63,790 nt of DNA from positions 1 to 63,790 of the forward strand of contig JABDMI010000127.1 of assembly GCA_013001575.1 (NCBI GenBank). Direction: 5' to 3'. Position numbers and translations under genes: made by a program. Positions 6,658-63,790 of this stretch are shown in pieces. This DNA is from Gammaproteobacteria bacterium (GTDB taxonomy: Bacteria; Pseudomonadota; Gammaproteobacteria; Steroidobacterales; JABDMI01). How positions within the stretch are numbered: the stretch's first letter is position 1; each line of letters starts with the position of its first letter. The notes under the pieces were generated by a model that ran no database searches, was not told where the DNA came from, and was given only the letters and a program-made list of their open reading frames with translations.

Positions 6658-7016
6658 GGGGGCGACCTGGCTTCGACGTGGATAGCGAAACTTTTTGTGC
6701 ATACCGAGCTGTAGCGACTCGTTAAACCACTGCAAACCTTATAGTTGCAAACGATAACAACTACGCATTAGCTGCTTAATAACCAGTTTTAATGCCCTTG
6801 GCCCACAATGAGCCTATGCGTTGTGGAATCCAGGGTTACTTTTATAGGATCGCGGCGAGTGATGTTCAAGCGCAGACCGTTAAACTCTTACTTGAACTGG
6901 CTTAGTGGCTTCCCTGACAGTCGGGTACTGCTAAGTAAGATTAAAGACTGAATAAGTATGTAGAGCGAGAAGCGGAGGATTTGCGGACGCGGGTTCGATT
7001 CCCGCCGCCTCCACCA
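6658..7016 (+). ncRNA. ssrA: tmRNA (SsrA)
   Basis: The 5' GGGGGCG pairs with the 3' CGCCUCC-A-CCA, including a G3:U pair. The T-arm GGGTTCGATTCCC is present. Tag ORF at 6747-6779 is GCA AAC GAT AAC AAC TAC GCA TTA GCT GCT TAA TAA = ANDNNYALAA. Overall close to the E. coli ssrA layout. Confidence 0.92.
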
Positions 7017-7198: not shown

Positions 7199-7251
7199 CC
7201 ACCCTTGCGGTGGCTTTTTTATTTTTGCGGCGGGCGAGAAGCCGCGTTGCG
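7199..7251 (+). repeat. Direct repeat copy 2 (terminator module)
   Basis: ccacccttgcggtggcttttttatttttgcggcgggcgagaagccgcgttgcg. It keeps the same two hairpins as copy 1. Confidence 0.85.
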
Positions 7252-7327
7252 TCTACTGCATAATGATTAAAACAGTGCGCAAGCGCCTCATGCTAAAATT
7301 CCTGCAATTCAATAATAAATTATTCGC

Positions 7328-8200: not shown

Positions 8201-9252
8201 GCGCACCATTCCAGGCTGTTATCGGTGACACCAAAACTCGATGAATTTCGCTTGCTATTTGCGTAAACATCAAGATCTTTCGCACCCGCAAATACGGGCT
8301 GTAAAAAATCTATCAACTGTTGATACTCGATCAAGAACGCATCATGACCGTGAATGGAGTTGATAATTCCAAGCTTGGCCGGTTTACCTACTGCGAGTAA
8401 TTTTTCCAAGGTGTCGTAATTTTCGGAATTTATATAGAAACCGTCACTATCGATTCCAATCAAATGGATGTTTGCATCGAAGTCAGCCACAGTACCTTCA
8501 AAATCCCCGGTGCCATCAGTGATGTCCCCAGTAGCGAGTAGATGATTCAACAGTTTGTATGAGGCTAATGCAAAGCGTTGCTCAAGTTTATCACCGTGAT
8601 GTTGTAACCAGCTTTCTACATTGAATAAGTCAAGTTCGGCATGCTTTGAGCGCGCGAATTTTTGTTTGAGTGAAGCGGCACTACGGTAAAAGGTCATTGC
8701 GTGCATACGCGCATCTTGCAGCGGTGAGTCGGAATGTTGCAAGATCTGTTTTTGTATACGCACATTAGCGATCAACCAGTCCGAGGCTTTCCAGTCTGTT
8801 GCGATCGGGATCAAATGCTCGGTAACATCCGGCTTTAACGCAGCAATTTCCCAGGCAAGTGCCCCACCGATACTTCCACCGATAATTGCAAACAGACGCT
8901 TGATCTTCAACTCCGAAAGTCCAGACAAAAATATTCTGGCAATATCTCTTAGAGTAAATTCCTGATAATTGTCGGTGAGCTTTTCATCGATTTGACTGAA
9001 ACCATTGCCCGGTATGTCAAAGGCCAGGATGGTGTAACGTCCGGTATCGATAATTTTGTTGTCACCAATGAGGTCATTCCACCAGCCTTGCGCACCCGTT
9101 ACGCTGGAGTTTCCAGTAAGTGCATGATTGACGAGCACAACTGGCGCTGTTCCCAGCTCGCGACCATAGAGTTGATACGTGAGCGTCGGGTCATGTCTGA
9201 AACCCGACGCGGTCACAAAGTCACTGACCACCAGTGTGTGTATTTGACTCAT
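8197..9252 (-). CDS. metX: Homoserine O-acetyltransferase-like alpha/beta hydrolase (MetX family)
   Basis: N-terminus LYGRELGTAPVVLVNHALTGNS, nucleophile elbow GGSIGG and a C-terminal HGHDAFL-type motif. Sits immediately downstream of metY. Confidence 0.7.
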   Translation of the reverse strand: MSQIHTLVVSDFVTASGFRHDPTLTYQLYGRELGTAPVVLVNHALTGNSSVTGAQGWWNDLIGDNKIIDTGRYTILAFDIPGNGFSQIDEKLTDNYQEFTLRDIARIFLSGLSELKIKRLFAIIGGSIGGALAWEIAALKPDVTEHLIPIATDWKASDWLIANVRIQKQILQHSDSPLQDARMHAMTFYRSAASLKQKFARSKHAELDLFNVESWLQHHGDKLEQRFALASYKLLNHLLATGDITDGTGDFEGTVADFDANIHLIGIDSDGFYINSENYDTLEKLLAVGKPAKLGIINSIHGHDAFLIEYQQLIDFLQPVFAGAKDLDVYANSKRNSSSFGVTDNSLEWCA

Positions 9253-9269
9253 TAGAATCCCTTTTCCTG

Positions 9270-10565
9270 TTAAGCGGCTTTGGAAATCGCCCGGAGCTTG
9301 CTGAAGGTGTTTTTCAAGTCCTGTTTCAGGTCTTCGATGTCCTCCAGACCAACGGATAGACGAATCAAGTCTTGTGTTACGCCGGTAGATTCCTGTTGCT
9401 CTTCCGTCAGTTGTTGATGCGTGGTACTCGCCGGATGAATGATCAGCGATTTTGAGTCTCCGATATTCGCCAGCAAAGAGAAAAGTTTGGATTCGTCAGC
9501 AATAGTTTTTGCCGCTTCGTAACCACCGGCAACGCCAAAGGTCACAATTCCGCTTTGACCTTTAGATAGGTATTTGTCAGATAATGATTTGTATTTGCTA
9601 GTCTTGAGTCCAGGATAGTTCACCCATAACACCTCGTCTTGAGCTTGTAACCATTCGGCCAGCGCTAGCGCATTTTCACAATGCTTTTTCACACGCAAAC
9701 TTAGGGTTTCGAGTCCTTGAATGATCTGGAAAGCATTGAATGGGCTAATTGCACCACCCAGATCGCGTAAGCCTTCGATACGAACTTTGGCAATAAACGC
9801 CGCTTCGGCCAACGCTTCGGCATACACCAGTCCGTGATAACCCGGCGATGGCTGAGTAAATTCTGGGAATTTTCCGTTAGCGTAATCGAATGTTCCAGCA
9901 TCAATAATCGCGCCACCCAGTGAAGTGCCATTGCCATTGATGTATTTTGTGAGGGAATGAATCACAATATTCGCGCCGTGTTTGATGGGATTCAACAAAG
10001 CAGGAGTTGCTACAGTGTTATCGACGATAAATGGGACTTGTACGTCTTTGGCAACGGAACTGATGGCATCCAGATCGAGAACGTCGAGTTTTGGATTACC
10101 GAGTGATTCGACAAAGATCGCACGAGTGTTGTCTTGAACCGCCTTGGAGAAATTTTCTACATCATCAGGATCAACGAATGTCGTGGTTATCCCGAAACGC
10201 GGTAAGGTCACGTTGAGTAGATTATAGGTACCACCATATAAGCTGTTGGAGGCTACGATATGGTCACCCGATTTTAGTAAAGTCAGCAAGGTTGTTGAAA
10301 TTGCCGCTGTACCAGAAGCCGTCGCCACCGCCGCAATTCCGCCCTCCACCGCTGCCAGGCGCTGTTCCAGGATGTCTACGGTCGGGTTATTGATGCGGGT
10401 ATAGATATAACCCGGCTCGGCAAGTGAGAACAGATCCGCCGCGTGTTGGGCATTGTTAAACACATAAGCCGTGCTTTGGAAAATAGGCACTGCACGGGTT
10501 CCAGCCGTTTGACCAACGTCGTGTCCGGCATGTAAAGCTTGTGTATCGAAATTATGAGTTGTCAT
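9270..10565 (-). CDS. metY: O-acetylhomoserine sulfhydrylase (aminocarboxypropyltransferase), PLP-dependent
   Basis: TQALHAGH..TRAVPIFQSTAYVF, YTRINNPT and SLTKYINGNG (PLP lysine) motifs. Start set at MTTHNF (ATG 10565). Confidence 0.85.
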   Translation of the reverse strand: MTTHNFDTQALHAGHDVGQTAGTRAVPIFQSTAYVFNNAQHAADLFSLAEPGYIYTRINNPTVDILEQRLAAVEGGIAAVATASGTAAISTTLLTLLKSGDHIVASNSLYGGTYNLLNVTLPRFGITTTFVDPDDVENFSKAVQDNTRAIFVESLGNPKLDVLDLDAISSVAKDVQVPFIVDNTVATPALLNPIKHGANIVIHSLTKYINGNGTSLGGAIIDAGTFDYANGKFPEFTQPSPGYHGLVYAEALAEAAFIAKVRIEGLRDLGGAISPFNAFQIIQGLETLSLRVKKHCENALALAEWLQAQDEVLWVNYPGLKTSKYKSLSDKYLSKGQSGIVTFGVAGGYEAAKTIADESKLFSLLANIGDSKSLIIHPASTTHQQLTEEQQESTGVTQDLIRLSVGLEDIEDLKQDLKNTFSKLRAISKAA

Positions 10566-11934: not shown

Positions 11935-12021
<87 letters not shown>

Positions 12022-45429: not shown

Positions 45430-45971
45430 GCTTAGTTATTGAAAAAAAAGACATTTTACACCTTTGCGTGAAGATTGTGGCATTGCGGCACCCGACTATT
45501 TACTGTATAGTTCGCACGTCTAACGTCTCATTAGACTTTGTTTCAAGTAATTGAAATATAACATTTTTTGAGAACGCAAAGATTTCGCAACCTTGCTGTT
45601 GCGGCATTTGCCCCAATATCAGCAATGTAGCACCTTTTTTTACCACCGGTTTATAAACAAAATAATAAACCCTAAATAATACCAATCTCGATTTGTTGTT
45701 CGAGCACAGAGCCACAACGCAATACAAACGTTTGTCGGCCAATCGAAAATTCAGAGATGACGTAAAAGCGAAAAACACATAACCTTTAAAATGTTATACA
45801 TAGTTTGCTATTTATTAAATTGCCTAACCAGTCTGTTGACACCGACTGTAGCGATTTCAGTACGTCCCTCACACACAGAGACCGGCTTAAGCCAGAATCT
45901 CTTACCAGTTTTCAATTCTTCAAAACACCTCGCACACAACAGATCATGGGATTGGTTGGAAAGCAAAACCC

Positions 45972-48875
45972 ATGAAAAGATTATTAGTAAACGCAACGCA
46001 ATCCGAAGAGATGCGCGTTGCAATGGTCGATGGCCAACACCTTTACAACCTCGACATCGAATCGCCAGCGCGCGAATCACGTAAAGCCAATATATACAAA
46101 GGCGTAATCACCCGGGTCGAGCCGAGTCTCGAAGCCGCGTTTGTTGATTACGGGGCTGAACGTCACGGATTTCTGCCTCTCAAAGAGATCGGCAAAGAAT
46201 ACCTCTCAAACTATAGCGGTAAAGGCAAGCCCAACATCAAAGAAGTGCTCAAAGAAGGCACTGAAGTAGTCGTACAGGTTGAAAAAGACGAACGTGGAAA
46301 CAAAGGCGCAGCCCTAACCACGTTTATTAGTCTGGCCGGTCGCTACCTGGTGTGCATGCCAACCAATGCCAAAGCCGGTGGCGTATCGCGTCGCATCGAA
46401 GGTAAAGACCGTAACGAATTACGTCAGGTCATGAACAATTTGAAAGTACCGGATGGCATGGGTGCAATTGCACGTACCGCGGCAGTGGGACGCAATGTCG
46501 AAGAACTGCAATGGGATCTTGACTATCTGGTCAATATTGCCAATGCGATCTATGAAGTTTCGGAAAAACGCAAAGCCCCCTTCCTGATCTATCAAGAGAA
46601 TAAGCCGATATTGCGCGCCTTACGCGATCATTTCAGTGGTGAAGTTGGCGAGATCGTTATTGATAACGATGAAATTTACCAGGAAGCAAAAAACTTTGTG
46701 GCTAAAGTTATGCCGCAATACGAACGCAAAGTAAAACTTTATAACGATGACGTTCCATTGTTTAACCGTTTTCAGATCGAAGGCCAGATCAATTCTGCCT
46801 TTGCTCACACCGTTGACCTGCCTTCCGGCGGTAGTGTGGTGTTTGATCGCACTGAAGCCTTGACCTCTATCGACATTAACTCCGCGCGAGCAACCAAAGG
46901 TGGCGATATTGAAGCTACCGCTTTAAACACGAACCTTGAAGCGGCTGAAGAGATTGCGCGTCAATTACGCATACGCGATCTTGGCGGCTTGATAGTTATT
47001 GACTTCATCGACATGTACCAGCAACGCAATCAAAAAGAAGTGGAACGCCGAATGAAAGAATCGGTACGGCATGATCGCGCGCGTATACAAATTGGACGTA
47101 TCTCGCGTTTTGGTTTAATGGAAATGTCACGTCAACGCTTACGCCCTTCTCTAAGTGAAGCCAATACCATGACCTGTCCACGTTGCAGTGGCCTGGGATC
47201 AATACGCGACGTTGAATCGCTATCACTGTCTATTCTGCGCTTGATCGGCGACGAAGCCAGAAAAGACAACACCTCACAAGTTGTTGCCCAATTACCCGTC
47301 GATGTCAGCACTTATTTGTTGAATGAAAAACGCGAATGGGTTGCAGAGATCGAAACTCGCAACAATGTGCGTGTGATCGTTTTGCCCGACGCACAACTGG
47401 AAACCCCGCATTTCCATTTGCGCCGCATTAAAGGCGATGAAATGGCCCTGCCTGAAAATCAGGGTTCCAGTGTTGACCTGGCATCCAAAATTGAAGATTT
47501 GCCATTGGTTGATCTGGACAAATTCGGCAAAAAACAAACACCGGAAGTTCCGGCGGTTGCCAATATTCTTCCAGAAACACCTGCACCACAACACGTACCA
47601 AAAAAGAAAACTCAAAAGCCCGTTAAGTCACGTAAACCTACCTCCGAAAAAGCTCCGGTAAAAGAACTTGGACTGATTAAACGAGTGACTAATTGGTTTA
47701 CCGGTAGCGCAACAGAAAAACCGACAAGCGAAGAAAAAGTCCGTAAAGACAAAGAATCTCGTGAACGCAAGGATTCCAAGAGTCGTCAACCACGTGGCAA
47801 GCAGGGCCAAGACAAAAGCCGTTCAGGCAAGCAACAAAGCCGCGGCAAGCAACAGGGTCAGAAATCTCAAAACCAAAAGCGTAATGAACGCGGGCGCGGC
47901 CAATCAAAACACAAGACCCAGTCTGATCGTAGTCAAAGTCAAAAAGGCAAGCAGCAAGATCGCAAACAGGGGCAACGCAAACAACAAAGGTCTCGCGATG
48001 AAAATTCCGATGTAACAGATACAAAATCCACAGACACACAGATCCGGCAAGATAATCAACAAGCCAAGCAACAAAGCGGCGAGCAAAAACAGGGGCGTCA
48101 GCGCCAAGGACGCAATCGCAATCGTAACCGTCGTCGCAACCCGCGTAGCAACGAACAACAATCGCAACCACGTGATGACAAGCCGCAATCCCAAACTGCG
48201 GAACCTGTAAAACAAGCAGCGCAACAAGCCAAACCGGAATCCAAGTCGGCAAGTGTACAGCCGGAGGTCAAGCGAGCAGAACAAAAAGTCGAAACGCCCG
48301 TTTCCAAGCCTGCCGCACCAAGCCAAGCGTCAAATTCTGGTTATGTAGCCCCATTGGCAGCGGCCCCGGATAGCAAACCTGAAAACAAGCAAAGCGAAGC
48401 AATGCGTTTTGCTCCGTCCAAGCCTGAGGTATCTGCAGCACCTAAACCTGCGGCACCTAAACCTGCGACACCTAAACCCGCTGCTCCCAAACCCGCTGCT
48501 CCCAAACCGGCAGCACCTGAAGCTAAGGCAGCAAAGTCTGAGCAAAAGCCGCAACAAGCTCCTCAGACTCCAACACAACACACTCCAAAGCCAGTGACCC
48601 CAAAACCACAAACTCCACCAAGCAAAGCGCCTGCTCAAGCTACCGCCGAAATACCGGCGCCGGCTAAAAGTGGCGGGTTTGGATTCTCAACCACGAGTGC
48701 TGCACAAACAACGACCGCACCAGCCATTCCCAAGGCCGTTGAGAAAAGACCGGTACCCAAGAAAACTGCTGAAGCTCAAAAAGAGACTCCAGTTAAAAAG
48801 ATAAGTGATGGCAAGTCGGCATTCACATTAAGCCATTCCGATAATGTGGTGCCAAAAAACAAAGAAAACGGCTAA
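45972..48875 (+). CDS. rne: Ribonuclease E
   Basis: [30 protein letters not shown] begins a conserved catalytic N-terminal half. The C-terminal scaffold is long, Arg/Pro/Gln-rich and low in complexity. Confidence 0.95.
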
Positions 48876-54226: not shown

Positions 54227-56722
54227 TTATTGTGCATTTATTGCACAGTCCTGATGCCAATAGCGGCAATTTGTCTCGCGCCAGGATGTGGATTTGATAC
54301 TTCCACCCGGACTTATTTGAAATTCCAATTGACCACTTGCAGCAATGTTGTGAATACGGGCCCCAATCCTTTGCCAGCGCCCGACCACTTCGATCTTGGG
54401 AAAACGCCAACGATTGGCAAAGCCGGCCGCAAAAATTACCTGGTCAGCTTGCGTCGCTTGAACAAATTCTGGGGTGGAGGAAGAAAGGCTGCCGTGATGT
54501 GGCGCAAAAACGATGTCGCTGTTTAAAAGACTATTGTCGTTGCTGTGCTGTTGCAATAACTCGTATTCGGCCAAAGTTTCTATATCCCCGGTTAACAAGA
54601 TCGAGCGACCGGCGTAGGAGATCTTCAGGACACAAGAATAATCGTTATTGTCACCACTAAGTGTGGACGGTGAAGGATGTAAAAACGCAAAGCTGACGTC
54701 GTCCCATGTCCATGTTGTGCCAGCCGTACACGGCATTGAACCGGGAAGTGGATCTTTTGCCGGCGCATACAATACTTTCGGAGCAAAGGCTTTTTGAATC
54801 GAAGCAAGTCCGCCTGCGTGATCATTGTCGCTGTGACTGATGATGGCACCGGAGAGTTGCCGTACACCGCGTGCCTGCAAGTCAGGTATCACCACCATCT
54901 CGGCGGTATTGCCGCCCTGTCGAAATGCCGGTCCGGTGTCATAGATCAACTGATGGTGTTGCGTTTGTATGAATACCGACAAGCCCTGCCCCACATCATA
55001 GACCTGCATGCTGAGACCCGACTTTACGGATTTACCTGGAGCGAAACCACTGATCAAAGGCAGTATCAATACACTTGCATAATGGCGTGCCACAAGACCA
55101 CGGGGCAAGATCAAAGTGATAAGCAAAATAAGCACACACAGGATCTGGAACCAACCCAGCCTGAGATCCTGACTGCTCAGTGACCAGACCGACACCCATT
55201 CCAACATTTGCCAGACTACGCCTAACCATTGATGTTCCCACCAATAAAGCTGTTGAGACAATTCAGGCAAAACGCCCTGCAGGATAACGGCGACCAACAA
55301 TACGGGCACCACACTCAGCGTGAATAGTGGAATAAGCACCAGATTAACCAGCGGCGCAACCAGACTGACTTTGGAAAAACTCATGGCCACCGGTACACTT
55401 AACAGCAAAACCAGTAAAAACTGCATACGCATCAGGCCTGAGAACTTGTGCTTAAAACGTCGTAAGAGTTTTTTCTCAGGTCGGTTAAATACTTTGTCGC
55501 GTTTGGCTAAATAGATTAATACCGCAACCGCCATGAACGACAACCAGGTGCCACTCGCCATAACTGCGATCGGATCCATGGCGGTCACCATCAGCAAAGC
55601 CAAAGCCAAAATTGACACGGCGTGTAAGCGGCGTTTACCAAACACGCCAATACTTGCCACCAACAACATAATGCAGGCACGCTGGGTTGGCACCGAGAAT
55701 CCGGCCAATGCGGCATAGATGAAAGCAAACCCGCCACCAAGTAATAGACCACATTTGAGGGGTGAAAACGCCGGTTGCGCGAGTCTTGATATGCGTGATG
55801 CTGGTAAGGCCCAGGCAAGCCAGAGAATTTTACCCAGATAAAACCCAAACATGGCGGCAATGGATATGTGCAAACCGGATATCGCCAATAAATGACTGGT
55901 GCCGGTATTTTGTAATACCGTCCATTGTTCTGTTGAGATGTCGTCACGTAATCCCAAACTTAATCCAAGGATCAGTGCGGTGATATTCGAATTTCCCGGC
56001 AAGGCAGAACGAATGGTATTGGCCAGACCTTCACGCACTTGCAACCAGGGGTAACGGTTTGTCTCTAAGTCAATTGCCTCAGCACGTAAATACGCCGTCG
56101 CGCCAATGCCCTGCTGATACAACCAGAGTTCATAGTCGAAGGATTCGTTATTACGTAAGCCACGTGTGGTTTTCAGTCGCAAAGTAAAATTCCAACAACT
56201 CCCGGCAGTAAATTTTTTCGGGTCTTCCAGATTGTAGGCATTAACCCGAATGCGACGAATATGCGTGACTTGTTCATCCTGTGGCTGGATCACAAAACGT
56301 AGTACCGAACCCTTGGCTTGCGGAATACTGGCAATACAGGCATCGAGTGAGAGATCTTGCGCCATCACATCCGGTGCGGCGGAATTAGACAAATACACAT
56401 GCGCCTGAATGTGGGCACGCAAGTAACCCATACCGATACCCAGCATTACAAGTAATCCGATCTTCAAAAGGAAAGCGGTTAGTCTTTTAAGCCTTTGCAG
56501 TCGCCAGAGATACAAGCAGAACACTGTAGTTGGCAAAAGAACGCATAAAAGTTCAAGACTCGTGAAAAGTCTGGATTGTTGCTGCACAAAAAATATGCCG
56601 GCAACAAAGGCCAAAGTGAACAATACCAGCGCCAGTGTGCGACTGAGCACACGCGGGTTTTTACTAGACGGCTGAATTGATTTGTGCGGGCGTGCGAGTA
56701 CGCCGCCCCGGGATATTTGCAT
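54227..56722 (-). CDS. comEC: DNA internalization-related competence protein ComEC/Rec2
   Basis: 831 aa. N-terminal TM/OB region, competence channel domain (TGTSHLLAISGLHI) and a C-terminal MBL domain (HSDNDHAGG). Confidence 0.85.
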   Translation of the reverse strand: MQISRGGVLARPHKSIQPSSKNPRVLSRTLALVLFTLAFVAGIFFVQQQSRLFTSLELLCVLLPTTVFCLYLWRLQRLKRLTAFLLKIGLLVMLGIGMGYLRAHIQAHVYLSNSAAPDVMAQDLSLDACIASIPQAKGSVLRFVIQPQDEQVTHIRRIRVNAYNLEDPKKFTAGSCWNFTLRLKTTRGLRNNESFDYELWLYQQGIGATAYLRAEAIDLETNRYPWLQVREGLANTIRSALPGNSNITALILGLSLGLRDDISTEQWTVLQNTGTSHLLAISGLHISIAAMFGFYLGKILWLAWALPASRISRLAQPAFSPLKCGLLLGGGFAFIYAALAGFSVPTQRACIMLLVASIGVFGKRRLHAVSILALALLMVTAMDPIAVMASGTWLSFMAVAVLIYLAKRDKVFNRPEKKLLRRFKHKFSGLMRMQFLLVLLLSVPVAMSFSKVSLVAPLVNLVLIPLFTLSVVPVLLVAVILQGVLPELSQQLYWWEHQWLGVVWQMLEWVSVWSLSSQDLRLGWFQILCVLILLITLILPRGLVARHYASVLILPLISGFAPGKSVKSGLSMQVYDVGQGLSVFIQTQHHQLIYDTGPAFRQGGNTAEMVVIPDLQARGVRQLSGAIISHSDNDHAGGLASIQKAFAPKVLYAPAKDPLPGSMPCTAGTTWTWDDVSFAFLHPSPSTLSGDNNDYSCVLKISYAGRSILLTGDIETLAEYELLQQHSNDNSLLNSDIVFAPHHGSLSSSTPEFVQATQADQVIFAAGFANRWRFPKIEVVGRWQRIGARIHNIAASGQLEFQISPGGSIKSTSWRETNCRYWHQDCAINAQ

Positions 56723-56806
56723 GATCGCTTCCTTGCTGATCGTTTAAAAAATGTGGACTAATTCCTTTAGTCAGCAAAAGTATAACCAAGCCGTTAGAAT
56801 ATCACC

Positions 56807-57376
56807 ATGCCCAGACGCTTTTTTCAACGTGTTCTACCCGACCCGAAAGAGATTCGCGATGCCTCGTATGTCAGTCCATTACGCGGTTTTATCGATAATC
56901 GACAGCTCTGGACCACCAAACGCCGCAATGTGGTGCTAGGTTTGGGGATTGGCATATTTTGCGGTTTTCAACCGATTCCTGCGCACACCATGCTGGCGGT
57001 ACTCTTAGCCATCTGGTGGAAAGCCAATCTGCCTATGTCGATTGTCGCGACCTTGTTCAACAACCCTATCACCATGTTTCCGATGTATTTCCTTGGGTAC
57101 AAAGTGGGCTGCGTGATACTGGGCGTACCGGACCTGGAGGTGCCACCCGACGCCAGCAAAATGGACTGGATCAAAAATTTGATCGCCAACAGTTGGCAAC
57201 CGATCTATTTGGGATGTTTTGTAACCGGGTTGGTGTTGGCGCTAATCGGCAGTTTAGGTCTCAACCAGTTTTGGAAATGGGCGGTTTTAAAACGCCGCCG
57301 CAATCGTTTACTGCGAACCGATGAATCCAAAAGACTGGAACAGGATAATGTGGAGTATAAGAAAAAGATCAAGTGA
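56807..57376 (+). CDS. DUF2062 membrane protein
   Basis: The RRFFQRVLPDPKEIR N-terminus and GIGIFCGFQPIP...NPITMFPMYF pattern match my recollection of DUF2062. Confidence 0.65.
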   Translation: MPRRFFQRVLPDPKEIRDASYVSPLRGFIDNRQLWTTKRRNVVLGLGIGIFCGFQPIPAHTMLAVLLAIWWKANLPMSIVATLFNNPITMFPMYFLGYKVGCVILGVPDLEVPPDASKMDWIKNLIANSWQPIYLGCFVTGLVLALIGSLGLNQFWKWAVLKRRRNRLLRTDESKRLEQDNVEYKKKIK

Positions 57377-57473
57377 CATTAACGCCGCAAGTATGGGCTT
57401 GCAAAAGTGGCAGGTAATTGCACATGCAATTTAAGTGGCGCATCTAACAGTCCAATGCCCTGCCTTGTTATGT
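57377..57473 (-). repeat. attC site (distal, after cupin cassette)
   Basis: The plus strand starts cattaacgcc and ends ccttgttatgt, matching the ends of the other attC sites. R'' ACATAAC follows the cupin stop. The site begins 1 nt after the DUF2062 stop codon. Confidence 0.6.
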
Positions 57474-57478
57474 TCAAA

Positions 57479-57928
57479 CTATTTAGATTCTGAACTTTTA
57501 ATTGGCATTGCATCAAGTGGCTCTACAAAACCGATATACAAAACACAGGGGTCGCCTTTGTGGCAATATGCGGAATGTGGCAGTTTGGCTGGGCCGTATG
57601 CATACTCTCCAGTTTTTATAGTTGCCTTTTCATGGTCGTCATATTGGACATCAAGGGTGCCAGAAACCAGCACCATACGCTCTTGAGATGTGTGTAAATG
57701 ATGTGGTATTACAAAATCACCAGGAACTTTAAAATAGATATCCAGGTTGTTTTTGGAGGGGTCACCCTGCAAAACTGCAATTTCACAACCTGTAGGTATG
57801 AAGTCAGGGCATGGAGCCCATTGAAGTGTTTTATCCATATGGGAGATAACCAAGGGCTTTTCTCCTGCATTTACATGCCCGTACATGAATATTAAAACTA
57901 GCGTTAAAATTAATTGAGTGTTTTTCAT
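57479..57928 (-). CDS. Secreted cupin-domain protein (integron cassette ORF)
   Basis: 149 aa. Signal peptide (LILTLVLIFMYGHVNA), then a cupin-like PHHLHTSQERMVLVSGTL region. Followed by an attC. Confidence 0.7.
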   Translation of the reverse strand: MKNTQLILTLVLIFMYGHVNAGEKPLVISHMDKTLQWAPCPDFIPTGCEIAVLQGDPSKNNLDIYFKVPGDFVIPHHLHTSQERMVLVSGTLDVQYDDHEKATIKTGEYAYGPAKLPHSAYCHKGDPCVLYIGFVEPLDAMPIKSSESK

Positions 57929-57958
57929 TTTTTAATACCTTTTTTGGTTAATAAATCA

Positions 57959-58092
57959 AAACAATACGAAACAATACGAGCGAAACAATACGAGCGAAAC
58001 AATACGAGACACACACCATTTATCCTACACGAAAGTCAGATAACGAAACAATACGAGACACACACCATTTATCCTACACGAAAGTCAGATAA
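57959..58092 (+). repeat. Tandem repeat block: AAACAATACG(AG) core x5, including a perfect 49-nt duplication
   Basis: 57995-58043 and 58044-58092 are identical (cgaaacaatacgagacacacaccatttatcctacacgaaagtcagataa). They are preceded by 10- and 14-nt partial units at 57959, 57969 and 57983. Confidence 0.95.
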
Positions 58093-58151
58093 GGATTACA
58101 AATTTTCTCGGTAGAATAAGTTCTTATATTTAATTTGCAAAAGGATTTGCA

Positions 58152-59129
58152 ATGGCTATTGCCCGTCGTCAGCTTATCGATGCTGAAACCACCCCTTATT
58201 ATCATGTAATGTCTCGTTGTGTCCGTCGTGCGTTCTTGTGTGGAATAGACAAGTTAACAGGGCGTGACTTTTCACATCGACGGCAATGGGTCGAAGATAA
58301 ACTCAATGAATTAATTCCAATATTTGCCATCGATCTCGCGGCCTATGCGATTATGAGCAATCATTATCATCTGGTGCTTCGAGTTGATAGTGATTTAGCT
58401 AGATCCTGGAGTATGGATGAAGTTTTTGAACAATACAGTAATTTGCATGCATGCTCGACGGTTGTGGAGCGGTATCTAAACGGGGCTGTACTTACAACTG
58501 CTGAACTATTTCTAGTACAGGAATACGAAAATGAATATCGGGAACGCTTGAGTTCCATCAGCTGGTTCATGAAAGTGTTGAATCAGCATATTGCGGTTAA
58601 GGCGAACAGAGAAGACAACTGCACAGGTAAATTCTGGGAATCACGCTTTAAATCCCAAGCTTTACTGGATGAGGCTGCTCTGCTTACTTGCATGGCATAT
58701 GTGGACTTGAACCCGATAAGAGCGGGTATGGCTGACCGACCTGAACAGTCGGACTTCACCTCGATTCAAACCCGACTGGATCGTAATAAACGCGTTCCAG
58801 CCAACTCAATGAAACTATTACTCGGCTTTATTAAACTCAAGGCCGAATATGGCGACAAACACATTCCACTGGCTGAATCGGCTTACATCGAATTGGTCGA
58901 TTGGACAGGACGATGTCTAAGAGATGGTAATAAAGGTTCTATCCCGCCTCATTTGGCCCCCATTCTCGAACGCATCAATCTCACCGAACAGGATTGGTTA
59001 CGACATACTCGCTACTTTGAAGCCAGGTTCAAACGCGTGGCAGGCAGTTGGGATTCCATCAAACAAACCGCTGCCAAATTAAAACGTAATTGGTTTCAAG
59101 GCAAACCGCCCAAACCGATACCTAATTAG
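58152..59129 (+). CDS. Y1 HUH transposase-family protein (IS200/RAYT-like, long form)
   Basis: 325 aa. TPYYHVMSRCVRRAFLCG, the HUH motif in AIMSNHYHLVLRV and the Tyr helix MAYVDLNPIRAGMA are typical of IS200-like/REP-associated tyrosine transposases. AAAGGA SD. Confidence 0.75.
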   Translation: MAIARRQLIDAETTPYYHVMSRCVRRAFLCGIDKLTGRDFSHRRQWVEDKLNELIPIFAIDLAAYAIMSNHYHLVLRVDSDLARSWSMDEVFEQYSNLHACSTVVERYLNGAVLTTAELFLVQEYENEYRERLSSISWFMKVLNQHIAVKANREDNCTGKFWESRFKSQALLDEAALLTCMAYVDLNPIRAGMADRPEQSDFTSIQTRLDRNKRVPANSMKLLLGFIKLKAEYGDKHIPLAESAYIELVDWTGRCLRDGNKGSIPPHLAPILERINLTEQDWLRHTRYFEARFKRVAGSWDSIKQTAAKLKRNWFQGKPPKPIPN

Positions 59130-59269
59130 AAAACTCCAACTAAATTAATGGAATTGGGTGCTGCCCAAGGATTGTTATGTCTTCGATTTGGGAAACTCTG
59201 AATTTTTAAGCCAAAAATCAGAAATTGTCGAATTTCGAACTATAAATCCCTCAAAATCTCATGTCTGTG

Positions 59270-59304
59270 CAAATCAAAAGCCTCAAGTTGATGCTTTTGA
59301 TTTG
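59270..59304. repeat. Perfect 12-bp inverted repeat (hairpin, 11-nt loop)
   Basis: caaatcaaaagc-ctcaagttgat-gcttttgatttg. There is no U-run on either strand, so it is not a typical terminator. Confidence 0.9.
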
Positions 59305-59320
59305 ACATATCTGTGTGTGT

Positions 59321-59419
59321 CTAAATTTGCTTTATTGATGGGTCATCAGGTTTCCATTCTTCAATTGGGTCATGAGCAATACAGTCCCATGACTTAATTT
59401 CAGGTCTTAATGTTTCCAT
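59321..59419 (-). pseudogene. Truncated paralog of cassette ORF 60760-61110
   Basis: METLRPEIKSWDCIAHDPIEEWKPDDPSIKQI* aligns with MKTLKPIIKEWDCITHDPIENWEPEDRSMVEF of the intact cassette. Similarity ends at about 59321. It is preceded by the same R' box, GTTATAC. Confidence 0.65.
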
Positions 59420-59422
59420 AGC

Positions 59423-59479
59423 GTATAACGTTTGAGAACAGCGGCGCCGTAGGCGTCCGACTGCTTTGACTTGTTAAGT
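59423..59479 (-). repeat. attC site (57 nt)
   Basis: Plus strand gtataac...cagcggcgcc-gta-ggcgTccgActg...gttaagt. The stem has two extrahelical bases on the 3' arm of the plus strand. Confidence 0.8.
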
Positions 59480-59482
59480 GCA

Positions 59483-59761
59483 TTATAAACATGCACCATG
59501 TACATAACAAACATAGACAATAGAAGCATAAAAAAATAATGGTAAATTAGCAATAAAAAGCCCTATTGAAAAATAGACACTGAACTTTGACTTATTAGAT
59601 ATAAAGTAATATGACAGTGAGCCTAGAGCAGATGAAATTACTAAAAATACTGTGTCAGAAATACCTGACCAGCTCAACGAATAATAACGAGTTATTGAAA
59701 TATATGCTGCTAGTACAACCCCCGAAATTAATAAATTTGAAAACAATCCTTTGATATTCAT
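59483..59761 (-). CDS. Cassette ORF: small membrane protein (about 3 TM)
   Basis: 92 aa from ATG 59761. The track start, GTG 59773, lies inside the R' box. Hydrophobic, with no recognised family. Confidence 0.5.
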   Translation of the reverse strand: MNIKGLFSNLLISGVVLAAYISITRYYSLSWSGISDTVFLVISSALGSLSYYFISNKSKFSVYFSIGLFIANLPLFFYASIVYVCYVHGACL

Positions 59762-59771
59762 ATTAAATGAC

Positions 59772-59861
59772 ACTTAACGCCTTGGTAAGCCGCAGCCAGA
59801 GCGAAGCGGCGGGGACAAAACGCATAAGCGTTTTGCTGTCGGCTTGACCAACTTGTTACGT
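59772..59861 (-). repeat. attC site (90 nt)
   Basis: Plus strand acttaac...gttacgt. R'' ACGTAAC is the complement of the R' GTTACGT that starts its cassette at 60301-60307. Confidence 0.75.
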
Positions 59862-59863
59862 GT

Positions 59864-60286
59864 TTAGTCATGGAAGTGCTCCAAACTTGCAGCCTTGATA
59901 TATGGAGTAAGGGCTTCCACTGCGCCGCTATTTTTGTGCCAGATAATATATGTGTAATCCCATTCTTCACTTATAACACACCCCAAATCTGGAACTACTA
60001 ACTTCAGGAATTCCGAGGCGTTTTTATTCATGCTTACTTCATAGTTTGAAAGTACAGATTCTATATCGCCAACGCTTGTAAGCGACTGCTGATCACAGCT
60101 CGCTATCTCAATAGCGAAGTCTTTAGCTAGGCTTCTTAGTAGCGTATTGAACCGACCCCATTCAACTTCCGTGACTTCGTCCAACTTGTGATAATTCTTT
60201 TTACCAAGCCATCCCTTCCATAAGGACACAAACTCTTTGGAATATTCCGGCTTAACTTCCCAACCTTCAAAGTATTCGCTAAACAT
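59864..60286 (-). CDS. Cassette ORF: hypothetical cytoplasmic protein (140 aa)
   Basis: Clean ATG ORF filling the cassette. Trp-rich, with no recognised motif. Confidence 0.6.
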   Translation of the reverse strand: MFSEYFEGWEVKPEYSKEFVSLWKGWLGKKNYHKLDEVTEVEWGRFNTLLRSLAKDFAIEIASCDQQSLTSVGDIESVLSNYEVSMNKNASEFLKLVVPDLGCVISEEWDYTYIIWHKNSGAVEALTPYIKAASLEHFHD

Positions 60287-60300
60287 GATTTCTCGGTGAC

Positions 60301-60380
60301 ACGTAACGTTTTAGGTAATGGGCGTATGCGCAGCACACGTCCAGCCAGCTTGCTGGCGATTATTAACCGACTTGTTATGT
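60301..60380 (-). repeat. attC site (80 nt)
   Basis: Plus strand acgtaacgttttaggtaat...cttgttatgt. The stop codon of the upstream cassette ORF lies inside R''. Confidence 0.75.
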
Positions 60381-60662
60381 TGCACTTTGCCAATTTTTGG
60401 TAATACCTTCATACTCCCACTCTGCTTGTTCTTTTGCTTCTTCAACTGACTCATGTGCTGAGTCTGATAACTTATTATCTGAGTAGCACATAAATAAATA
60501 ACAATAACCTTGTAAGTCGGTTTTAGTAATAGCAGCCCATTTTGCCTTACCCATTACTTTGCCATCAATTTCATGCGTGCAGTTACTGGTATGAATACAC
60601 GACTCATCAATAATTGCACTCAACATAATTTCAAGAGAGCCTATTTTTTCAGGTATCTGCAT
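60375..60662 (-). CDS. Cassette ORF: hypothetical protein (95 aa)
   Basis: ATG ORF filling the cassette. C-terminal EQAEWEYEG motif. Confidence 0.55.
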   Translation of the reverse strand: MQIPEKIGSLEIMLSAIIDESCIHTSNCTHEIDGKVMGKAKWAAITKTDLQGYCYLFMCYSDNKLSDSAHESVEEAKEQAEWEYEGITKNWQSAT

Positions 60663-60677
60663 AAAATTTCTTTTGCG

Positions 60678-60756
60678 ACATAATGTTTTAGTTAACAGGC
60701 GCTACGTATGTAGCGTCCAGAGAGTGAAACGAACGCTGTTAAACGGTTTGTTATAC
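60678..60756 (-). repeat. attC site (79 nt) with mutated crossover triplet
   Basis: Plus strand acataaTgttttagttaac...tttgttatac. It aligns base-for-base with the left end of the 60301 attC, but AAC is AAT here (R' reads ATTATGT, not GTTATGT). Confidence 0.65.
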
Positions 60757-60759
60757 GCT

Positions 60760-61110
60760 CTATGGTTTGTAATTTTCATACTCCCACTGAAACATTTTTG
60801 ATAACTCCAAACTTATGCCTTGCCAATTAATACCAGAAATATCATTTACCTTAGTATTTAAAATATTTAAGACCTGGCTCCAACTTTCATAATAAGGGAT
60901 AACTAATATATAGTCTTTGTGTGCAAGTTGAGAAAGCATTTTTTCAGTTGTTACATGAACATTAAAATTATCGGCTCCCTTTTGGCCTTCAATGCCAATT
61001 GAAATGTTACACCAAAATTCAACCATAGAACGATCTTCAGGCTCCCAGTTTTCTATTGGGTCATGAGTTATACAATCCCATTCTTTTATTATTGGTTTAA
61101 GTGTTTTCAT
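60760..61110 (-). CDS. Cassette ORF: hypothetical cytoplasmic protein (116 aa), possibly immunity-protein-like
   Basis: ATG ORF ending in MFQWEYENYKP. A paralogous fragment lies at 59321-59419. The family assignment cannot be verified here. Confidence 0.6.
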   Translation of the reverse strand: MKTLKPIIKEWDCITHDPIENWEPEDRSMVEFWCNISIGIEGQKGADNFNVHVTTEKMLSQLAHKDYILVIPYYESWSQVLNILNTKVNDISGINWQGISLELSKMFQWEYENYKP

Positions 61111-61116
61111 GTTTGC

Positions 61117-61176
61117 GTATAACGCCTAGCTAAACGGCGCGGTGTAACCGCGTCCGATTTAAGCGTATTGTTAGGT
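61117..61176 (-). repeat. attC site (60 nt)
   Basis: Plus strand gtataac gcctagctaaacggcgcgg-tgta-accgcgTccgAtttaagcgta ttgttaggt. Confidence 0.8.
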
Positions 61177-61180
61177 GTGC

Positions 61181-61486
61181 TTATGGTGCCCATTTATTTA
61201 ATTTTACTTCTAAAGGCGATAATAAAGACCACAATAATAAACCACACATAGCTACGCCAAAAAATATAATCACTTTAACTGTAATATTAAGTGAAACGAG
61301 GGTTTGTAAATAGATAGATAGTAATCCTATTGCTACTGCAGATAAACACAAAAACACTGCGTTGATAACCCAATGAAACCCTACCATAGATTTACAATTC
61401 TGGCACTTAGGCCTACTCAACATTAAACCAATAATTGAGATTGATTTTTTATTGCAATTGGGGCAATTTCGCTTCAATGAGTACAC
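61181..61486 (-). CDS. Cassette ORF: small membrane protein with N-terminal zinc-ribbon (CPNC...CQNC) and 2 TM
   Basis: 101 aa. The GTG start overlaps R' (GTTAGGTGTAC). The paired CxxC motifs argue for the long form. Confidence 0.55.
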   Translation of the reverse strand: MYSLKRNCPNCNKKSISIIGLMLSRPKCQNCKSMVGFHWVINAVFLCLSAVAIGLLSIYLQTLVSLNITVKVIIFFGVAMCGLLLWSLLSPLEVKLNKWAP

Positions 61487-61544
61487 CTAACGTTTGAACT
61501 AAGCGGCGCCGCTTGCGGCGTCCGACTTAAGTGACTTGTTAGAG
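61485..61544 (-). repeat. attC site (60 nt)
   Basis: Plus strand acctaac gtttgaactaagcggcgcc-gcttgc-ggcgTccgActtaagtgac ttgttagag. Confidence 0.8.
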
Positions 61545-61565
61545 GAACGTAACTTCATAACAAGA

Positions 61566-62069
61566 TTAAATCTCAATTGATCGTAGTAGCTCTAACCATT
61601 TGTATTTATTTTCCATCACCTCAGTAAAATCGATTTCTTTGGCAAAGGGTAATTTATGAGAATAAAATATTGAATACACATCATTACCGTCAGAATAGAA
61701 TCTATTTATTACATACTCATAGCGAGACTTATCTGGTGCTAATAAGGTCAGCAATAAATACACATCTTCTGGGTATGAGGTGTCTTCATTTTGCAAAATT
61801 TCAGGAGCAAGTGCAAACATTGGCTTTACACTATTAACATAGTTTGGCAAAACCTCTTTTAGCTTGGTTTTGTTACTGTATTTGCGTACAGTAATCATAT
61901 TTTTCCAAGCCTCTAAGCTTTGTCCATTAGGCAAATATTCTGATGTTTTTACATCATTTTTATCAGACTCCCAAACTTGACAGAACTCACTTTCACCAAA
62001 CGATATACAGTCAGATGCAAATGCAGTATTAGCAAATATAACAAATAGAATAGCTATATATATTCTCAT
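61566..62069 (-). CDS. Cassette ORF (first cassette): secreted hypothetical protein
   Basis: 167 aa from ATG 62069 with GAGGAA SD. Signal peptide MRIYIAILFVIFANTAFA. No recognised family. Confidence 0.6.
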   Translation of the reverse strand: MRIYIAILFVIFANTAFASDCISFGESEFCQVWESDKNDVKTSEYLPNGQSLEAWKNMITVRKYSNKTKLKEVLPNYVNSVKPMFALAPEILQNEDTSYPEDVYLLLTLLAPDKSRYEYVINRFYSDGNDVYSIFYSHKLPFAKEIDFTEVMENKYKWLELLRSIEI

Positions 62070-62077
62070 TCTAGTTC

Positions 62078-62411
62078 CTCTAACAGTTTTATTCAGCGAC
62101 ACAGTGTCGCATAATTCTATGTCGGTATTTATCCATTAATGTTTGGTTAAATACCACGATTTATTCAAGTTAAACAATAACATAGATTACAACATCTTCG
62201 TTAAAAAAACTCCTACAAAAGCGACACATGAAATCTGAGTTGTGTGTCGGTTTTATCTTACGGATTCTTAAAGAATATCTAAATTATTCCATTAAAACAG
62301 TAACTTACATCATGATGTGAGCCTTTGTTAATGCGACAGTCTGTTTTGTCGGTTTTCAAAGTCTGATAATATTCAATTACAAATTTATTTAACAGTTAAA
62401 AGGATTTAACT
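62078..62411 (-). other. attI region (approximate) with cassette junction GTTAGAG
   Basis: Minus strand reads aaaactGTTAGAGGaactagaATG. The box is the exact complement of R'' CCTCTAAC of the first cassette's attC. The region lies between the array and the intI start. Confidence 0.6.
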
Positions 62412-63407
62412 ATGAAAGACATGGACAATGTCAGGCATGTTTTGCCAAAAACACCTTCTAAATTTATGCACCGTTTGCGTGCGTTCATCAGGGCAAAAAA
62501 TCTCGCCTATAAAACTGAGCAAACTTACTGCTTTTGGATCAAGCGCTATATCTTTTTTCACCATAGGCAGAACCCACAAGAACTGACACCACAACATGTG
62601 GAACAGTTTTTGCATTCTTTGGCTGTGGTTGATAACGTGAGTGTGGGCACACAAAAGATCGCATTAAATGCTTTGGCATTTTTATACAACCAGTTTCTAA
62701 AGCAGCCGCTGGGTCAAATTCATATAACCAAAGCAAAAGTGCACAAAAGAATTCCTACGGTATTCTCACACAAGGAAGCCATTGCCATAATTCAGGCTTT
62801 AACAGACCCTTGGAAACTATTGGCGAACTTGATGTATGGCTCTGGACTACGTACCAGTGAAGCCATCAAACTCCGCGTAAAAGATCTGGATTTTGATAAC
62901 CAGATCATTTTGATTCGCTCGGGAAAAGGCGATAAAGATCGACGCAGTATATTACCCGATTCACTCTACCCTGAGCTCAAACAACAGATCAATCTGGTTA
63001 TTAAAGTGCATCATAAAGACCTGCACGACGGATATGGGTCAGTTTATATGCCAAAAGCATTAAACCGAAAATACAAAAACGGTGCAAAAGAACTGGCATG
63101 GCAATATTTGTTTCCTTCAGAGAGCCTATCGCGTGACCCTCGCAGTGGAATTATTAGAAGACACCATGTCCATGAACGCTCTCTCCAACGTAACGTTAAA
63201 AAAGCCATTCAGGCGGCTCATGTCACAAAGCACGCCAGTTGCCACACTTTTCGTCACAGCTTTGCTACAAGACTATTGGAACAAGGGAACGACATCAGAA
63301 CCGTGCAGGAATTACTCGGGCATGCGGATGTTAAGACTACTGAAATTTACACTCATGTTTTGCATAAGGGGGTATTAGGAGTAAAGAGTCCGGTGGATAG
63401 CCTGTAA
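62412..63407 (+). CDS. intI: Integron integrase IntI
   Basis: 331 aa tyrosine recombinase. Motifs YKTEQTYCFWIKRYIFFH, GSGLRTSEAIKLRVKDLD and the IntI-specific insertion ALNRKYKNGAKELAWQYLFPS. The catalytic HTFRHSFATRLLE...LLGHADVKTTEIYTHV is also present. Confidence 0.9.
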   Translation: MKDMDNVRHVLPKTPSKFMHRLRAFIRAKNLAYKTEQTYCFWIKRYIFFHHRQNPQELTPQHVEQFLHSLAVVDNVSVGTQKIALNALAFLYNQFLKQPLGQIHITKAKVHKRIPTVFSHKEAIAIIQALTDPWKLLANLMYGSGLRTSEAIKLRVKDLDFDNQIILIRSGKGDKDRRSILPDSLYPELKQQINLVIKVHHKDLHDGYGSVYMPKALNRKYKNGAKELAWQYLFPSESLSRDPRSGIIRRHHVHERSLQRNVKKAIQAAHVTKHASCHTFRHSFATRLLEQGNDIRTVQELLGHADVKTTEIYTHVLHKGVLGVKSPVDSL

Positions 63408-63417
63408 TGGCTTACTC

Positions 63418-63790
63418 TCAGGCCTGACGCAGATTGGCAAAATGAAACAAACAGATACCAGTAGCTACTGACACGTTTAAACTCTCCACCGCCCCCGCCA
63501 TAGGAATCTTGATCAGTTGGTCACAGTGCTCTCGCGTTAGGCGTCGCATACCTTTGGCCTCGTTACCCATCACAATGGCAAGCGAACCTGACTCTGTAGA
63601 CTCAAATAAGTCCGACTCTGCTTCACCCGCCAAACCAATAACAAACACCCCGTTCTCTTGCAGCATTCGGATGGTGCGTGCCAGATTGGTCACTTGCACA
63701 TAAGGCACCAGCTCTGCCGCACCCACCGCGACTTTTCTAACCGCGCCGGTAAGGCCGCAAGAATTACGTGACGGTGTAATCACGGCATCC
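63418..63790 (-). CDS. rlmB: 23S rRNA 2'-O-methyltransferase RlmB (SpoU/TrmH family), C-terminal part; 5' end outside window
   Basis: [51 protein letters not shown] and [15 protein letters not shown] are SpoU motifs. The frame is open to the window edge. Confidence 0.8.

Follow-up and report, generated by a model that had tools for sequence, protein, structure and literature searches.

Evidence for a complete and apparently active chromosomal integron of a probable beach-sand gammaproteobacterium

Introduction

Contig JABDMI010000127.1 (GenBank assembly GCA_013001575.1), of which we analyzed positions 1 to 63,790 of the forward strand (hereafter the window, 63,790 nt), carries a tyrosine recombinase gene beside a row of small genes separated by palindromic repeats. 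Is this an integron, with an integrase gene (intI), an attI site and an array of gene cassettes bounded by attC sites? If so, is it at work in nature, and where does its array end? A previous reading of the letters, made without database searches (hereafter the sequence-only reading), had placed a chromosomal integron at 57377-63407, between a DUF2062 gene and rlmB, with seven attC sites called by eye and an orphan protein in every cassette.

We find that the window very probably holds a complete chromosomal integron made up of intI, attI and an attC array, in which every sequence-testable integron feature is present except that no Pc promoter was recognised. Judged from beach-sand metagenome contigs, which place different cassettes at attI at the predicted crossover, this integron is apparently active in nature. 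Its distal end is interrupted by an insertion sequence (IS)-like element with a Y1-type transposase gene, and at least two configurations of this end exist in the population. The host is probably an uncultured gammaproteobacterium from beach-sand metagenomes.

Results and Discussion

The integrase

The gene on which the reading as an integron first depends is the following.

62412-63407, + strand: intI, integron integrase, 331 aa (TIGR02249)

Its product reaches 417.7 bits against the NCBIfam model TIGR02249 (cutoff 265), and its residues 16-329 align end to end with VchIntIA (2a3v; E 1.9e-89). The alignment with XerA splits into two parts (10-195 and 252-317) and leaves residues 196-251 unaligned; because XerA skips this segment and VchIntIA covers it, we take it to be the integron-specific insertion. 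The catalytic set is complete by alignment to 2a3v (R147, K172, H278, R281, H304 and Y313), so that both the insertion and the intact active site claimed from the letters alone stand, as does the divergent orientation of intI relative to a minus-strand cassette array. In VchIntIA, the extrahelical attC bases are held by Q145, W157, K209, Y210, W219, P232, H240 and H241 (PMC3053210). The last six of these are identical here (K220, Y221, W230, P243, H251 and H252), and K157 and R169 stand at the Q145 and W157 positions, where they match K156 and R168 of IntI1. Overall identity to IntI1 is 44%. The best relative in our collection, which holds one genome per species, is 68% identical and lies in a different genomic context (locus L001; L-numbers denote loci or contigs from other genomes or metagenomes), and exact-protein look-ups of IntI, of the proteins of cassettes 1, 5 and 6 and of the transposase returned no match.

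An entirely different reading, which the sequence-only reading had itself named as a possible refutation, is that the locus is no integron, but a Xer- or phage-type tyrosine recombinase beside unrelated palindromic repeats (e.g., REP-like sequences or terminators). The protein does match the XerC, XerD and XerA models more weakly, as would any tyrosine recombinase. These scores are, however, far under the cutoffs of those models, while that of TIGR02249 is far over its own, and the repeats and cassette boundaries described below add to the case against such a reading.

attC sites

Since Rfam holds no attC family, we built our own covariance models. A MAFFT alignment of all seven window sites was unsuited to modelling, and a first model (R1) was therefore made from the three most similar ones (attC1, attC2 and attC6, ~80% alike) and searched against 80 loci of other species, fetched solely for encoding an IntI homologue. 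This search yielded 59 sites, all of them on the intI strand and all but one (58/59) upstream of intI. On the window itself, R1 gave marginal values for attC3 (E 7) and attC4 (E 1.1) and missed attC5 and attC7; it was over-fitted, and was used only for gathering foreign sites for a second model (R2). R2 was built from the 59 foreign sites only and searched against the whole window with all filters disabled. Its best seven matches are the following, all on the + strand.

61483-61546, + strand: attC1 (R2 E 9.2e-13)
61115-61178, + strand: attC2 (R2 E 2.7e-12)
60676-60758, + strand: attC3 (R2 E 0.21; weak)
60299-60382, + strand: attC4 (R2 E 0.001)
59770-59863, + strand: attC5 (R2 E 2.7e-08)
59421-59481, + strand: attC6 (R2 E 2e-13)
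57376-57475, + strand: attC7 (R2 E 0.0028), abutting the stop codon of the DUF2062 gene

These are the very seven sites that had been called by eye, ranked from E 2e-13 to 0.21, the next match being at E 0.89. The sequence-only reading had proposed a covariance model as a check and had regarded the failure of such models on these sites as its refutation; a model of foreign sites recovers all seven. The sites are heterogeneous in length (57-100 nt), and only three of the seven (1, 2 and 6) are alike. The eighth match (E 0.89) is a 27-nt AT-rich palindrome at 45775 (45775-45801, ACACATAAC...GTTATACAT), which mimics the R boxes without an L stem; we took it as a chance match. It lies upstream of a large open reading frame (ORF; 45972-48875) whose counterpart in L081 carries RNase E domains.

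Beyond the window, R2 detects attC sites of three plasmid class 1 integrons, namely those that follow aac(6')-Ib' and dfrA14. A fourth match, a partial one at 1954-2003 of L168, adjoins a group II intron and probably represents an attC that has been interrupted; no further match at E <= 1 was found in 36 kb of class 1 integron loci. Among the foreign sites, 12 of 17 stem pairs change on both sides, and none of 500 shuffles equals the observed covariation, in an alignment that was fitted to the model and is therefore biased toward structure. In the model structure both bulged bases lie on the 3' arm (5 bp, T, 3 bp, A, 4 bp), and attC1 scores 85 bits on the + strand vs. 24.7 bits on the - strand. 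Bulges on the 3' arm and the higher + strand score of attC1 both identify the + strand as the recombinogenic bottom strand, in agreement with what had been proposed from the extrahelical bases by eye. One attC match with an unusual layout, downstream of an intI homologue, was seen at 1968-2031 of L025.

Cassette boundaries and cargo

The sites delimit six cassettes that are intact, single-gene and co-oriented on the - strand.

61491-62083, - strand: cassette 1 (C1), ORF 61566-62069, 167-aa secreted protein, PF27161 (HI_0983 family)
61123-61490, - strand: cassette 2 (C2), ORF 61181-61486, 101-aa protein, zinc-ribbon-like (two CxxC pairs), with two predicted transmembrane helices
60684-61122, - strand: cassette 3 (C3), ORF 60760-61110, 116-aa Imm8 protein (polymorphic-toxin immunity family)
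60307-60683, - strand: cassette 4 (C4), ORF 60375-60662, 95-aa protein
59778-60306, - strand: cassette 5 (C5), ORF 59864-60286, 140-aa protein from a cassette family that is conserved and circulates widely
59429-59777, - strand: cassette 6 (C6), ORF 59483-59773, 96-aa small membrane protein

We compared the 7-mer at the start of each cassette (R') with the reverse-complemented R'' box of its own attC. The two correspond exactly in cassettes 1, 2, 3, 5 and 6, the five for which this complementarity had already been pointed out, and the rule extends to cassette 4 over its six cassette-borne bases, the seventh belonging to attC3 (T for the conserved C). With three free positions per cassette, we put the chance of six such matches at ~(1/64)^6 by our own arithmetic. 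That the cassette-boundary rule holds, and that the repeats fit a model which finds sites upstream of intI genes (58/59) as well as the attC sites of class 1 integrons, makes it vanishingly unlikely that the locus is a Xer- or phage-type recombinase beside unrelated palindromes. Elsewhere, in L127 (663-7971), six attC matches all have the left box CGGTAAC with right boxes that vary, and the usual R'/R'' rule is not followed.

The cargo is less isolated than was first thought: the claim of an orphan ORF in every cassette is not upheld, as six of the seven cargo proteins have relatives or belong to curated families (Imm8, Cupin_2 and PF27161). The ten relatives of C1, from Colwellia and Motilimonas among others, are 47-59% identical and match a recent Pfam entry, PF27161 (HI_0983); for C2, 43 cluster representatives were found at E <= 1e-3 (26-66% identity); and C3 matches Pfam Imm8 (PF15586) over model positions 3-114 of 114 (E 1e-18, 67.9 bits, cutoff 27). 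Ten relatives of C4 are 62-71% identical, and the 111 relatives of C5 (46-91% identity) include proteins from Vibrio, Enterovibrio, Teredinibacter, Marinomonas, Halomonas and Pseudidiomarina. C6 had no match in curated families or local loci, a search that did not extend to the large databases. Structure prediction had been proposed for the cassette proteins; for the two modelled with AlphaFold2 (AF2), it gave weak PsbP/DcrB/EagT6-like fold matches for C1 (TM-score ~0.5; predicted local distance difference test, pLDDT, 84) and a confident model of C5 (pLDDT 94.2) with no fold match in PDB or BFVD. PADLOC and PHROGs gave no match for any window protein and relaxed Pfam scans gave noise only, and no cassette protein matched a resistance-naming family in the general Pfam and NCBIfam scans, which did not include a dedicated resistance search. 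The cargo list of the sequence-only reading omitted a 325-aa Y1 transposase ORF and a truncated paralogue of the Imm8 gene, both described below.

Several of these families travel as cassettes elsewhere. Relatives of C5 in L169, L170 and L171 (Teredinibacter turnerae T7901) each lie between attC matches. The relatives of C1 (L172 and L173), C4 (L174 and L175) and C5 all have an attC match behind the ORF, on the opposite strand, and most have one in front of it as well, e.g., the C1 relative in L172 sits between two attC matches and the C4 relative in L174 is followed by one. Because these relatives are attC-flanked in other arrays, the C1, C4 and C5 families are cassettes there too. The array of L169 has an unusual end (9151-10280), where Y2 (IS91-like) transposase and integrase genes are convergent with the cassettes.

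attI and cassette turnover

Between cassette 1 and intI lies the region expected to hold attI.

62078-62411, no strand assigned: attI-to-intI intergenic region, delimited by homology with L001 and by natural joins

The attI core is CTCTAAC (62078-62084), with the crossover CTCTAA|C at 62083|62084. Metagenome contigs show three or more different cassettes joined to one right-hand sequence at this point, and the L001 contig starts at the homologous TAAC, from which the 330 bp to its intI align with the 334 bp of the window. The position of attI is thus fixed, as L001 starts at the same TAAC and cassettes join there. A palindrome on the crossover side (GCGACAC-A-GTGTCGC, 62096-62110; ACGAAC-GAG-GTTCGT in L001) is kept between the two sequences despite changes on both arms, and two further GCGACA/TGTCGG inverted pairs follow at 62221-62250 and 62333-62352. 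IntI or a regulator could bind at these three GCGACA...TGTCG(C/G) inverted repeats.

We next aligned contigs from public beach-sand metagenome runs (X-numbers) with the window; X1-X4 contain 77-93% of the sampled words of the array DNA. A joint 60680->62081 with three ambiguous bases, equivalent to 60683|62084, is present in X1, X2, X3, X4 and X6. It corresponds to the base to a crossover between the R' box of attC3 and attI, and sets cassette 4 directly at attI. In X3, X4 and X6, this point of attI is also occupied by another cassette, which ends in ...CCTAATGGGCA. The attC4 crossover (60304-60307) has three or more alternative partners, and further alternatives exist at attC1. The partners at 60683|62084 share only three bases, which disfavours homologous recombination. 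Since variant contigs place different cassettes at attI at the predicted crossover, we conclude that cassette turnover at the predicted crossover points occurs in nature.

Two other joints in X1 and X2 (61542->62080 and 60756->62081) combine the right box of attC1 or attC3 with 22 nt of the attI core, after which the sequences diverge. Their source may be another, related integron in which an attC without an ORF makes up the first cassette.

Several observations weigh against a complete and active integron. A simple and insensitive scan recognised no sigma-70-like promoter in 61950-62500, and no LexA box was recognised between attI and intI; for want of the latter, the assay of excision after SOS induction suggested by the sequence-only reading is without support in the sequence. 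attC3 is weak (E 0.21) with a mutated R' box (ACATAAT, T in place of the conserved C), and the second bulged base of the attC structure is an A instead of the usual G, just 3 bp from the bulged T. IntI has no exact match in the collection and a best relative at 68% identity, so that its activity is predicted from sequence. Lastly, the distal contiguity of the array is a path through a repeat-bearing element, and the junction concerned is absent from the two runs that otherwise match the window best.

Some of these points would also suit a fossil integron, in which IntI is inactive and the variants arose by homologous recombination or belong to different lineages: promoter and LexA box went unrecognised, the attC3 R' box is mutated, an IS has disrupted the array, and contigs in the same samples represent another, related integron lineage whose attI is partly shared. 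Yet intI is full length with all catalytic and DNA-contact residues intact, the joints are base-exact at the predicted crossover with 3 nt shared, too short for homologous recombination, and several different cassettes occupy the first position at attI. We thus regard a fossil as highly unlikely and retain the reading of a complete integron that is apparently still active.

The distal end of the array

The features at the two edges of the array are the following.

63418-63783, - strand: SpoU-family rRNA methyltransferase gene, rlmB-like, 3' part (SpoU_methylase E 2.6e-28)
59333-59428, - strand: 5' end of a truncated second Imm8-type cassette (Imm8'), 28-29 codons (59333-59419), cut at 59332|59333
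58049-59332, + strand: IS-like element, ~1.3 kb, with assembly branch points at 58049 and 59332
58152-59129, + strand: Y1 (HUH) transposase gene, 325 aa, with partial sub-cutoff profile matches
57384-57958, - strand: cupin cassette, 3' part, ORF 57479-57928, 149 aa, signal peptide (Cupin_2 E 3.9e-10)
56807-57376, + strand: DUF2062 flanking gene (Pfam DUF2062 E 3.7e-35)

intI and the rlmB-like gene are convergent and 10 bp apart. The array is more AT-rich than its flanks, as was noticed at first sight (GC 0.32-0.43 vs. 0.46-0.51). The Rfam scan of the window returned a tmRNA (215.6 bits) and one tRNA only, at 6658-7016 and 11938-12021, which are ordinary housekeeping features.

The unit between attC6 and attC7 (57384-59428, 2045 bp) had been taken for a seventh cassette, but it is composite and fails the R'/R'' rule (start box GTATAAC at 59423 vs. 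the reverse complement of GTTATGT). Three pieces are fused in it: an Imm8 cassette cut down to its 5' part, an IS-like element, and a cupin cassette of which the 3' part is left. Imm8' starts with the box GTATAAC, as cassette 3 does; its positions 59334-59419 are 72% identical in nucleotides to 61025-61110, the 5' end of the C3 gene, and tblastn gives 65.5% identity over 29 aa. The cupin cassette lacks a 5' boundary of its own. We also rejected the transposase gene as a cassette in its own right, since the boxes on either side of it are mismatched.

The limits of the element are drawn at 58049 and 59332 from several lines of evidence, namely contig ends, branch points, three contexts of the right end and the similarity limits of relatives. 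Contigs of metagenome-assembled genomes (MAGs) that carry DUF2062, attC7 and cupin stop inside the element or exactly at 59332 (L083 at 59332), and metagenome contigs show three different continuations after this position. Among the more than 580 metagenomic relatives of the Y1 element (best 53% identity), similarity ends ~60-120 bp upstream and 75-300 bp downstream of the gene, and related elements 80-90% identical lie in unrelated flanks. After the right end, contigs of X1, X2 and X5 read AT and then resume at 59241, so that the last 92 bp are duplicated in tandem in some strains.

Is the array then continuous from rlmB to DUF2062? The comparison of this locus in related strains that the sequence-only reading had proposed shows a shared C2-C3-C4 core and a different distal end. 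In L085, from MAG GCA_018677305.1, the end of C2, attC2, C3, attC3, C4 and attC4 are identical to the window, but attC4 is followed by a GIY-YIG cassette with its own attC and then, 230 bp on, by rpsF, rpsR, rplI and dnaB. With rlmB on the other side of intI and rpsF at the end of the array, the integron of this MAG lies in the rlmB-rpsF gap. The GIY-YIG cassette (L085, 1063-1341) encodes 92 aa that weakly resemble PDC-S14, a candidate defence family of PADLOC.

It is thus quite possible, if somewhat short of an even chance, that the integron proper lies between rlmB and rpsF, and that 57377-59332 is a separate single-cassette locus joined to it by an IS-linked rearrangement or by an assembly path. 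Besides the array of L085 ending at rpsF, the same MAG carries the DUF2062-cupin-IS contig (L083) that ends exactly at 59332. X1 and X2 have zero depth over 59362-59417, with the DUF2062 block at 12.5x and the array at 8-17x, and there the right end of the IS continues into other sequence. The three contexts of this right end and the failure of the R'/R'' rule in the terminal unit point the same way. Against such a separation, contigs in X3, X4, X5 and X8 run from the right end of the IS through Imm8' as far as attC6, and attC7 has the same polarity as the array. The IS is also single-copy, as its body has the same depth as the backbone; an identical left end was seen in one other context only, as a solo 55-nt fragment, and a further context is that of a diverged copy. 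We rejected on these same grounds (solo 55-nt fragment, single-copy depth) a second full IS copy inside Imm8'. With a single copy of the IS, its left end on the DUF2062 side and its right end in Imm8' have to lie on shared molecules in X3.

At least two configurations therefore exist in the population, differing exactly at the right end of the element. The configuration of the window is probably real in some strains, though short contigs cannot prove it. Of the original placement between DUF2062 and rlmB, the rlmB side stands, and the DUF2062 side becomes one of at least two configurations, with L085 ending at rpsF.

The Y1 element

The DUF2062-attC7-cupin-IS block recurs in L081-L084. The transposase matches Pfam Y1_Tnp (21.2 bits, cutoff 23) and the NCBIfam model REP_Tyr_transpos for REP-associated tyrosine transposases (RAYTs; 46 bits, cutoff 80) partially and below cutoff, and has an HYH (HUH-type) motif at residues 71-73 with a candidate catalytic tyrosine in AYVDLNP. 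A hairpin (59270-59304, fold z-score -3.9) lies near the right end of the element, and the fold test found no significant hairpin at the left end. There, between the transposase ORF and cupin, the tip is reiterated in tandem with units of 10, 14 and 49 bp (57959-58092, of which 57959-58048 lie upstream of the element). One 14-bp unit of the CGAAACAATACGAG repeat (57967-57980) is missing in X1-X3, which indicates that its copy number varies in the population. The flanking repeat units were not found elsewhere in the 64-kb window, and the many dispersed REP copies typical of RAYT/REP systems were likewise absent from the window and the metagenomes, where only the solo 55-nt left-end fragment was seen. 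Over 58810-59073, within the transposase gene, the window and L083 differ at 41 of 264 positions, yet they are identical over 56123-58809 and 59074-59332, and L081 ends at 58809. This mosaic suggests recombination between diverged copies of the element.

It is tempting to ask whether such elements have a particular relation to integrons. That the Y1 element targets attC hairpins was considered and rejected, as element boundaries lie 240-870 bp from an attC and the boundary here is inside an ORF. In the unrelated integron of L035, a 46%-identical homologue (7227-8210) with the same orientation is found immediately on the distal side of the second attC, and 8 of 80 metagenomic Y1-homologue loci have an attC within 6 kb (L127, L139, L161, L094, L133, L154, L112 and L115). 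In seven of these eight loci the attC matches are on one side of the element only, and 14 of the 18 matches are on the transposase strand.

From L035, the one-sided attC matches and the two configurations that differ at the right end of the element, one could propose that this Y1 family prefers the distal edge of attC arrays, where it breaks and fuses arrays and moves cassette blocks between chromosomal sites. If so, the element here would link the rlmB/rpsF integron to a lone cupin cassette beside DUF2062. We consider this unlikely. The element is not inserted in an attC. IS elements of many families accumulate in cassette arrays, which counts against a preference of this one. A survey with IntegronFinder found IS in a fourth of complete integrons (PMC4889954), which counts against it as well.

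Proposed mechanism and significance

In the mechanism that we propose, IntI would recombine the folded bottom strand of attC (here the + strand) with double-stranded attI at the A|C crossover 62083|62084. Circular cassettes would enter next to intI and leave by attC x attC or attI x attC recombination, presumably drawn from a pool shared with other marine bacteria. Catalysis by this IntI is predicted from its sequence, and the cassettes would be expressed from a promoter near attI, where none was recognised. The Y1 element would sit inside the second Imm8 cassette, whose gene is cut by its right end at 59332, and its left side adjoins the cupin cassette deprived of its 5' boundary, presumably through a rearrangement of this distal end.

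The locus adds a well-documented and very probably complete integron from a sand-dwelling uncultured bacterium, with an IntI lineage 68% identical to its nearest relative, and offers a natural example in which the gain and loss of cassettes at attI can be read base for base from metagenome contigs. Its cargo without visible function is not lineage-specific, as the C1, C4 and C5 families are carried as cassettes in other marine arrays. The highly conserved 140-aa family of C5, with a confident model that matches no solved or predicted viral structure, is a reasonable target for functional study. Existing knowledge of how integrons work is left unchanged by what is an ordinary new example of a well-known system.

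Comparison with known systems

The Y1 element shares with IS200/IS605 and RAYT elements a single putative Y1-type ORF, an HYH motif, a candidate tyrosine, one subterminal hairpin and the absence of terminal inverted repeats of the usual kind. Unlike IS200 TnpA, its protein is about twice the size (325 aa) with partial, sub-cutoff model matches, and unlike IS200/IS605 elements, no left-end hairpin was found and the left-end tip is reiterated in tandem. The IS200/605 element ISHahl1 adjoins a Halorhodospira CALIN (PMC7923331), and the element described here is similarly at the edge of an attC array, but differs from ISHahl1 and the IS200 type in its insertion inside a cassette ORF, outside attC. 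Group IIC-attC introns and IS1111-attC elements are also mobile elements in arrays with their gene on the strand opposite the cassette ORFs (two group II introns in the same orientation are present in the class 1 array of L168), but these insert in the attC itself, whereas the boundaries of the Y1 element, in this and related loci, are 240-870 bp from the nearest attC.

Among integrons, the class 1 mobile integrons (IntI1; attC of aacA4 and dfrA14) have the same architecture and the same attC fold, R2 detects their sites, and IntI1 is 44% identical and, like the IntI of the window, has K and R where VchIntIA has Q145 and W157. Unlike them, the window has no Tn402/Tn21 context and no 3' conserved segment, and its flanks are chromosomal and housekeeping. 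With the sedentary chromosomal integrons (e.g., the V. cholerae superintegron and that of Teredinibacter turnerae T7901), the locus shares the extra domain and extrahelical-base residues of IntI, a divergent intI, co-oriented single-ORF cassettes mostly of unknown function, an AT-rich array, chromosomal flanks and partial homogeneity of attC sites (attC1, attC2 and attC6). A relative of C5, 71% identical, is itself a cassette in the T. turnerae array. It differs from the sedentary superintegrons, which have dozens to hundreds of attC sites, in having seven, heterogeneous ones of 57-100 nt. The flanks are housekeeping genes and no transposition module lies beside intI, yet the closest IntI relative is at a different site; to our knowledge, an insertion site beside rlmB (with rpsF in the related MAG) has no earlier description. 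Judging from these sequence features as a whole, the integron resembles the sedentary chromosomal integrons of marine gammaproteobacteria.

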